Assembly: GCF_024502345.1 (NCBI RefSeq)
Contig: NZ_JALDNN010000001.1
Strand: one strand, 5' to 3'
Length of the DNA: 64,000 bases
Source: Escherichia coli
GTDB taxonomy: Bacteria > Pseudomonadota > Gammaproteobacteria > Enterobacterales > Enterobacteriaceae
Shown here in pieces: positions 63,093 to 64,000 of the stretch; position 1 is the stretch's first letter, and every line of letters begins with the position of its first letter. Position numbers and translations under genes: made by a program. The notes beneath the pieces were generated by a model. That model ran no database searches. It was not told the DNA's origin and saw only the letters and a list, made by a program, of their open reading frames with translations.

Positions 63093-63736
63093 CTACTTGT
63101 AGCCATTAGGGAGCCACTGGCCCTGTTTGCGAATATCAGTAATAATGCCCCCCTCTTTGACCGAAATGGTACGCCAGCTTGGTTCTTTGCTGGATGCATT
63201 CCCATAGGTATACCCGACAGTCATTGTCAGGTTTTCGCCTGAAGTTGTGGTGAGATCAGCCTCATACTTAGCTTCGGTATTTTGTTTGCGAATAAAACGC
63301 ACGGTGTTGATTGCAGAACAGCGAATACTGCTTTTCGCATATTCAAAGGAATTGTTAGCCATTTGGCATCCGTCGTTTTTAATTTCATCCGTCAGGTTTG
63401 CAGAAACATTAAAGTTCTTAGGTACAGGGGCAAATTTAGCCATGTCGTTTCGCATAGTCGGTGGATCTGTCTGAAGCACAAGATAAACAGGACAATCTGA
63501 TTTGCCTACTTCACACGCTTTTGCCACGTAATCACGTACTGGCCATCCAGCATTACCGAAATATTCCGCACCACTTTCATCTTTGCATTGTGACCAGGTA
63601 GCTTTTTTCCCCATCATAATGCCGTCTACCAGCACACAGGTGACGGCTTTTACAGGCTCACCATCCCACCGGACTGCATCAAAGGGCTGAATGCCTGTAT
63701 GGTTCACGTCAAGCGTGTAGGCCTGTGGATTCCTAG
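63093..63736 (-). pseudogene. hypothetical protein, 5' end truncated by IS5
   Basis: Reading frame open from the IS5 junction to stop at 63093; the first 23 residues of the track ORF are encoded by the IS5 terminus; no family recognised. Confidence 0.45.
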
Positions 63737-64000
63737 GGAAGGTGCGAACAAGTTCCTGATATGAGATCATCATATTCATCCGGAGCGCATCCCAGAGGGA
63801 CATCATGAGCCATCAACTCACCTTCGCCGATAGTGAATTCAGCACTAAGCGCCGTCAGACCCGAAAAGAGATTTTCCTCTCCCGCATGGAGCAGATTCTG
63901 CCATGGCAGAATATGACCGCTGTCATCGAGCCGTTTTATCCCAAGGCGGGCAATGGCCGACGGCCCTATCCGCTGGAGACCATGCTGCGTATTCACTGCA
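63737..64000 (+). mobile_element. IS5 insertion sequence (left end, continues beyond window)
   Basis: Terminal repeat ggaaggtgcgaacaag starts at 63737, immediately after a CTAG target site (63733-63736). Confidence 0.85.
63805..64000 (+). CDS. insH: IS5 transposase, N-terminal part (partial)
   Basis: Translation [40 protein letters not shown]... matches the IS5 transposase N-terminus; runs off the window end. Confidence 0.85.

Follow-up and report, generated by a model that had tools for sequence, protein, structure and literature searches.

What has become of the gene that meets the right-hand edge of this stretch of Escherichia coli DNA? In the window, meaning the whole 64,000 nucleotides analysed from contig NZ_JALDNN010000001.1 (assembly GCF_024502345.1), a minus strand open reading frame (ORF) runs directly into the end of an insertion sequence (IS), so that three things need to be settled: which element this is, which gene it has entered, and what is left of that gene. 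The element is ISKpn26, a member of the IS5 family, and its insertion at a CTAG at codons 54/55 has very probably made a pseudogene of a chromosomal island gene that encodes, when intact, a 267 amino acid protein. The features at the junction are as follows.

63733..63736, no strand: CTAG target site, read directly from the window and touching the IS terminus
63737..64000, plus strand: transposase-proximal end of ISKpn26 (IS5 family), the first 264 of 1196 bp, at 100% identity, running off the window
63735..63806, minus strand: IS-derived leader of the chimeric ORF, made of 23 codons antisense through the IS end and the hybrid codon 24
63093..63734, minus strand: native 3' fragment of the island gene, codons 55-267 of the 267 amino acid gene and its stop codon

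The element and its insertion site

Read directly, the window has the target CTAG at 63733-63736 and an IS5-type terminus, GGAAGGTGCGAACAAG, from 63737, the letters across the junction being GGATTC CTAG and then the IS end GGAAGGTGCGAACAAGTTCC. A terminal inverted repeat lies at 63737-63752 and the transposase ATG is at 63805 on the plus strand. The 16 bp inverted repeat, GGAAGGTGCGAA(C/T)AAG, and the IS5-type DDE transposase place the element in the IS5 group of the IS5 family. The 65 N-terminal amino acids of the transposase match the NCBIfam model NF033581 (IS5-family transposase) with an E-value of 6e-10, which scores under the full-length cut-off because only these 65 amino acids are inside the window.

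The sequence-only reading of this DNA had placed IS5 from 63737, right after CTAG. The position and the family stand, while IS5 proper has to be replaced by ISKpn26 (100% identity, against 86% for IS5). All 264 visible bases are those that begin the 1196 bp ISKpn26 copy in plasmid pABWA45_1, and at least 2968 plasmid records match them at 99% or more; ten of the 12 plasmid rows listed are annotated there as "IS5-like element ISKpn26 family transposase", the other two having no feature at that place. Identity to IS5A of E. coli K-12 strain MG1655 is 86.4% over 265 aligned columns. In ISfinder practice, copies of the same element share about 90% nucleotide or 95% amino acid identity or more, and isoforms share more than 90% of their nucleotides. 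By this practice the visible element, at 86%, is a named element other than K-12 IS5, and IS5 in the strict sense (the K-12 isoform) was therefore rejected. There is no further piece of ISKpn26 elsewhere in the window. The reference copy in pABWA45_1 (L017 1289..1300, 2497..2504) has TTAG next to one end and TTAA next to the other, an imperfect 4 bp duplication, and may therefore have undergone a later rearrangement.

The minus strand ORF (63093..63806) encodes a 237 amino acid chimera, in which 23 IS codons and a hybrid codon precede 213 native ones. The sequence-only reading was right to call it chimeric, with IS sequence in its first 23 codons: the IS contributes the 70 nt at 63737-63806, which is 23 codons and the first base of codon 24. 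The hybrid codon is CCT (Pro) and replaces the native Ala54. The translation of the native fragment is that of residues 55-267 of the product of an intact allele (L016 7346..8149, 804 bp), and covers the rest of the N-terminal domain, with its four conserved cysteines, and the whole of the C-terminal domain, with two. Compared with this allele, exactly 54 N-terminal residues are displaced, which agrees with the earlier statement that the native gene has lost its true start and promoter.

The intact allele was found through a 25-mer ending at the CTAG, in a metagenome contig (L016, OGYE01000726.1) that carries both the empty site and the intact gene. Its reverse complement is 100.000% identical to the window over 57732-61598 and 61597-63736. 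This identity stops at the last base of the CTAG (63736), after which the contig runs on as CTAGTCGATCATTCGCC. Two further empty-site alleles, L020 (chromosome OZ039639.1) and L021, are likewise 100.000% identical to 61597-63736. The empty site reads GGATTCCTAG/CTAGTCG (CCTAG/CTAGTCG), also given as CTAGCTAG, and leads into the intact ORF. Among public assemblies, 312 indexed blocks contain exactly this intact protein, and four such loci were read.

There are two near-identical variants of the island at this point, CCTAGCTAG (L016, L020, L021) and CCTGGCTAG (L001, L015, L018, L019). They differ as CCTAG and CCTGG, a synonymous G/A polymorphism (Ala54 GCT/GCC), which means that the CTAG used by the IS is present only in some alleles. 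The gyrB gene of the strain is that of a typical E. coli, but none of the 5426 complete E. coli genomes matches the gene region at 100%, and there is an apparent 4 bp mismatch with the closest of them. This mismatch needs no deletion, because the CCTAGCTAG alleles carry the CTAG; insertion into the closest complete-genome allele (CCTGGCTAG) with a 4 bp deletion was rejected on the same ground.

ISKpn26 has been described as a 1196 bp IS5-family element whose insertion in Klebsiella acrR took place at a CTAG and duplicated 4 bp (PMC8023600), and the target preference of IS5 is C(A/T)A(G/A) (PMC11894529). With a simple insertion, the window would be followed by 932 further ISKpn26 bases ending CTTATTCGCACCTTCC, then CTAG, then CTAGTCGATCATTCGCCTGTTTTAG; the right end of the element would thus be succeeded by CTAG-CTAGTCGATC (CTAGCTAGTCGATCATTCGCC), where the 54 codons of the 5' part would lie, and after them by the 144 amino acid partner gene considered below. 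Several points weigh against a simple insertion. The far end of the IS is beyond the window, and for the source strain both the duplication of the target and the survival of the gene's 5' part are what we infer. Exact look-up of the 237 amino acid chimera in public gene calls did not find it, the predicted 90 amino acid 5' chimeric product is not on record in those gene calls, and the junction 37-mer is absent from species-representative genomes.

Alternatively, the junction could mark one side of an IS-mediated adjacent deletion or rearrangement. This genome would then lack the 54 codons of the 5' part, and possibly the partner gene and further parts of the island, where a simple insertion would only have moved them 1.2 kb away. 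In one isolate, a further event at an ISKpn26 in acrR took away the first 276 bp along with the duplicated repeat (PMC8023600), and the island of the present strain has a 1299 bp deletion and a nearby IS30 insertion. The missing 90 amino acid product and the unseen other IS end would also be accounted for. Absence from indexes of gene calls is, however, weak evidence here, as the strain is apparently unindexed, and the junction falls exactly at a preferred CTAG with the flank otherwise identical to the empty-site alleles, which is the pattern of a primary insertion. A deletion or rearrangement at this junction is therefore unlikely, and insertion of ISKpn26 into the intact gene is the reading kept below.

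Consequences for the interrupted gene

Sixteen complete E. coli genomes have the gene intact, with nucleotide identities of 89-96.5%, and the gene occurs in 19 of the 5426 complete genomes, in one of 72,556 plasmids and in no phage record. Two more genomes (H18, H19) match the gene region with the match divided between two separate places. Between the fragment and the allele of strain CFSAN051542 (L001) there are eight synonymous and three non-synonymous differences, a ratio of substitution rates (dN/dS) of 0.10, and the fragment has no internal stops. Judged from these comparisons of sequence, the gene is real and is under purifying selection. A lack of homologs and poor coding statistics, which the sequence-only reading had named as grounds for doubting the ORF, are the reverse of what is seen. 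That the 213 codons are undamaged, and that the visible 264 IS bases are identical to circulating copies, would make this a recent pseudogene.

The 213 codons that remain would have been cut off by the insertion from their promoter and start codon, and from the sequence for the signal peptide, the first beta-strand and the first helix of the N-terminal domain. In the model described below, strand 1 is residues 28-38 and helix 1 is residues 40-55 (full-length numbering), so that a break after residue 54 would remove both of these and the export signal. The IS-derived leader of the chimera is not hydrophobic and therefore would not substitute for the lost signal peptide; any product would in consequence be in the reducing cytoplasm, with its six cysteines unpaired.

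It had also been proposed, from the sequence alone, that IS5 ends can act as outward promoters and that the fragment could still be expressed. The chimeric ORF is open, has an ATG and has a weak Shine-Dalgarno-like AAGGTGA about 12 nt upstream, and IS5 insertions are able to activate neighbouring genes (PMC11894529), so that a working 237 amino acid chimeric protein could be imagined. A search of 62850-64000 for sigma-70-like sites, however, found none on either strand. The activation routes given in the introduction of PMC11894529 are de-repression, effects on DNA conformation and loss of H-NS looping, and that paper's own finding is a fusion promoter, in which the transposase promoter serves to activate an operon oriented the same way. 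None of these routes is an outward promoter, and neither is the fusion promoter, which needs the orientation of the transposase; the fragment reads opposite to the transposase, whose promoter is directed away from it. The product would, in addition, have no hydrophobic leader, would place its six cysteines in a reducing compartment, and would lack the predicted strand 1 and helix 1. Transcription from the IS end giving a working chimeric protein is accordingly very unlikely, and residual expression of the fragment is unsupported and functionally moot.

The insertion of a plasmid-associated ISKpn26 into a chromosomal island gene is ordinary genome decay, and has for neighbours a deletion that removes a toxin-antitoxin pair and an IS30 in a transporter gene. 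Its value is as one more case of the activity in E. coli chromosomes of an element that is common on resistance plasmids.

The intact protein, its partner and the island

The disrupted gene is itself modestly interesting, as it belongs to a tiny, unannotated family that is restricted to the Enterobacterales, is predicted to be exported and to contain disulfides, and has a conserved partner and a fixed place in its islands. A word-indexed search of 5.8 billion proteins gave 19 clusters of homologs, and 38 were obtained at an E-value of 1e-3 or better when 1.84 billion representatives were searched exhaustively with a profile. All matches with a named organism are from the Enterobacterales (Escherichia, Salmonella, Citrobacter, Atlantibacter, Yersinia, Providencia, Pectobacterium, Serratia, Enterobacter, Budvicia). 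The sequence-only reading had noted several cysteines and no recognisable family, and this is upheld: there are six cysteines, the 213 residue fragment (residues 55-267) has no Pfam match even at an E-value of 10, the family has no sequence match in NCBIfam, PHROGs or the PDB, and PADLOC gave merely a chance match to JetC (E 0.06).

The N-terminus of the 267 amino acid protein, MHKLIVLSLSSVALLIPSISSA followed by LTIHGDIHPERYTFFL, has a basic start, a hydrophobic core and a small-x-small motif (SSA/L), and looks like a cleavable signal peptide. In the family alignment there is a conserved N-terminal domain of about 150 residues with four conserved cysteines, in which the motifs are G-x-I-H/Q-P-x-R-Y-T-F/Y-F/Y-L, K-A-V-T-C, C-K/x-D-E-x-G-x-E-Y, G-W-P and C-x-V-G-x-x-D/x-C-P-V-Y-L. 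This domain is also found alone, in proteins of 148-170 amino acids. It is followed by one to several modules of about 70-100 residues with two cysteines each (K-x-x-G-C ... C), of which P0011 and P0029 have several copies; the intact protein has six conserved cysteines, in three conserved pairs. Long forms of 411-419 amino acids have an extra C-terminal domain that is homologous to the 144 amino acid partner (E 2e-5).

A structure was predicted with AlphaFold2 from 28 family sequences (predicted local distance difference test, pLDDT, 86.8) and was used in preference to a run on 14 sequences (pLDDT 60.9); its mature numbering is the full-length numbering minus 22. The N-terminal domain is modelled as strand 6-16, helix 18-33 and strands 62-72, 75-84, 89-92 and 102-107, and the C-terminal domain as a helix at 144-164 with five to six strands. 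The prediction is thus of two tandem alpha+beta roll (cystatin/NTF2-like) domains, each with a helix packed on a curved antiparallel sheet, and the helix on a five-stranded antiparallel sheet in the order b1-a-b2-b3-b4-b5 is that of the cystatin fold. Foldseek against AFDB50 returned 12 uncharacterised family members and then, weakly, multi-cystatin proteins, and against the PDB returned a two-domain phytocystatin (E 6e-4), TcpC (3ub1, E 4e-3), latexin and fetuin-B, all with low TM-scores.

It is possible, and is suggested here tentatively, that the intact protein is exported to the periplasm, has disulfide bonds and, together with its partner, binds or inhibits a protease or another envelope-acting enzyme. 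Against this, there is no match to the profile of the cystatin superfamily (MEROPS I25/Pfam PF00031), and the inhibitory motifs that were sought, an N-terminal Gly, QxVxG in hairpin L1 and PW in hairpin L2, are not found: the b2-b3 hairpin, which has no QxVxG, is the most variable region of the family alignment, and the GWP conserved after b4 is outside the cystatin PW context. NTF2-like proteins of type IV secretion systems (T4SS), namely VirB8, TraM, DotI and TcpC, score nearly as well as the cystatins. In the model, the resemblance to cystatins is at the level of the fold only.

An alternative is an NTF2/VirB8/TcpC-like periplasmic scaffold for a helper conjugation or secretion machine, for instance in island mobilisation or entry exclusion. 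The match to the double-NTF2 conjugation protein TcpC would fit this, as would the antirestriction, DUF932 and RadC neighbours, which we take to resemble genes of plasmid leading regions. The NTF2-like proteins do score below those of cystatin fold, though, and VirB8-like proteins have an N-terminal helix anchor where this family has a short signal peptide of cleavable type. There are no T4SS genes in the five contexts examined, and the family is nearly absent from plasmids. With a signal-peptide-like h-region leading to SSA/L and no T4SS cluster in those contexts, assignment as a VirB8/TcpC-like T4SS component was rejected, and the scaffold in general is quite improbable. The remaining probability as to function lies with something else entirely.

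The proposed binding or inhibitor protein would not act alone. Across the loci compared, the family gene is always 16-40 bp downstream of a gene for a secreted partner of 144-161 amino acids. In E. coli the 144 amino acid gene ends 19 bp before the 267 amino acid gene; in Yersinia a 146 amino acid gene, 77% identical to the partner, ends 16 bp before a 419 amino acid form; and in a distant element (L008) a 161 amino acid homolog of the partner (E 1e-20) precedes a stand-alone homolog of the N-terminal domain. The partner has a signal-peptide-like N-terminus and two conserved cysteines, has no match in Pfam or the PDB, and is commoner than the 267 amino acid family, with 95 clusters. In some Yersinia and Atlantibacter forms the partner and the cystatin-like protein are fused. 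In E. coli W an IS3 occupies the expected place of the partner gene (L013 2749..).

The pair has a fixed slot as cargo of CP4-57/P4-like integrative islands in E. coli (L001, L016, L018-21), Yersinia (L002-4), Citrobacter (L005) and the Logan loci L008-11, the context being conserved in E. coli, Yersinia, Citrobacter and two Logan assemblies. Upstream are AlpA, DUF3987, YagK/YfjJ and sometimes a YfjR-like WYL regulator; downstream are a small ORF, a hypothetical protein of about 150 amino acids and sometimes an antirestriction gene, and then DUF932, RadC, DUF987 and CbeA/CbtA. The two ORFs next downstream in the window are these.

62884..63090, minus strand: small conserved ORF of 68 amino acids, 65% identical over 51 amino acids (E 4e-20) to a Yersinia gene of 57 amino acids (L002) in the same position
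62400..62891, minus strand: conserved hypothetical protein of 163 amino acids, the next gene downstream, with homologs in E. coli (L001 5515..5970), Yersinia (142 amino acids, 56% identical) and Citrobacter

From its conservation the 68 amino acid ORF is probably a real small gene, and it is probably in the same transcription unit as the truncated gene; it is without annotation in the E. coli RefSeq record L001.

A bolder suggestion, and a somewhat more doubtful one than that for the protein itself, is that the pair is an unrecognised envelope module of P4/CP4-57 islands, either a periplasmic inhibitor or immunity pair directed at an incoming protease, cell-wall hydrolase or toxin, or a system for exclusion of phages or other elements. 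With the same degree of doubt, this strain would then have lost the module through ISKpn26. Were it true, a function would be given to one slot of these widespread and poorly understood islands. As it stands, the family with its conserved partner is a modest lead and not a discovery.

Further damage is seen in the island. Relative to the otherwise 100% identical islands L016 and L019-L021, there is a deletion of 1299 bp at 61597-61598 with a 2 bp overlap at its junction. Gone with it are the final part of the DUF932 gene, RadC, DUF987, the antitoxin CbeA/YeeU and the first part of the gene for the toxin CbtA. The deletion leaves a headless CbtA remnant of 110 amino acids and a DUF932 ORF with a foreign tail (ORFs 61288..61620 and 61511..62365, both on the minus strand). 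A transporter gene is also interrupted.

56039..58446, minus strand: gene for a sugar efflux transporter of the Set family, interrupted by an IS30-family transposase ORF at 56572..57723 (NF033563, E 3e-82)

The N-terminal half of the transporter is encoded at 57781..58446, its C-terminal half at 56039..56575. This deletion and the IS30 insertion indicate that the island is decaying in this strain. Upstream of a rhuM-like gene, a 72 bp stretch (58934-59005) is 90% identical to 59822-59893 inside that gene, and could be left over from a second rhuM copy at the edge of the island; a 49 amino acid ORF with RhuM-like sequence is at 58828..58977. There is no tRNA in 55000-64000, so the attachment end of the island would be beyond the window. 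In E. coli CFSAN051542 an IS3-family element splits the DUF987 gene (L001 2694..3907), and past AlpA and YagK/YfjJ, in a part that would correspond to sequence beyond the right edge of the window, the island has a TerY-P anti-phage system, with a VWA protein and a Ser/Thr phosphatase (L001 11654..12843).

Comparison with known systems

At their transposase end the K-12 IS5 copies (insH) have the same terminal repeat, GGAAGGTGCGAACAAG, as the element in the window. They also share its preference for C(T/A)A(G/A) targets and the placing of the transposase ATG 68 nt from the end (base 69), and differ from it in nucleotide sequence, identity being 86% over 264 bases. The insertions of ISKpn26 in acrR and mgrB of Klebsiella pneumoniae are like the present one in that a CTAG inside a coding sequence is the target and the gene is left truncated and non-functional; here, in contrast, the insertion is in the chromosome of E. 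coli and its target is an uncharacterised island gene.

With the tandem cystatin-fold inhibitors (multicystatins and two-domain phytocystatins, latexin, fetuin-B), the 267 amino acid protein would have in common two successive helix-on-sheet domains, as modelled, the strand order of the N-terminal domain, secretion and disulfides, all of which are predictions for the bacterial protein. The nearest counterpart of its slot in K-12 is the envelope slot of CP4-57 (yfjR-ypjK-yfjS-yfjT), which is of the same island class, has the same position and likewise encodes small exported proteins of unknown function. Distant elements further share with CP4-57 a YfjR-like WYL regulator (36-38% identical) before the gene pair. 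A homology of the partner to K-12 YfjT would be tentative at best: BLASTP aligns the two at an E-value of 0.004-0.006, with 0.006 over 57 amino acids that include the signal peptide, and hhalign gives a probability of 14%. K-12 differs in that it has no counterpart of the 267 amino acid protein.
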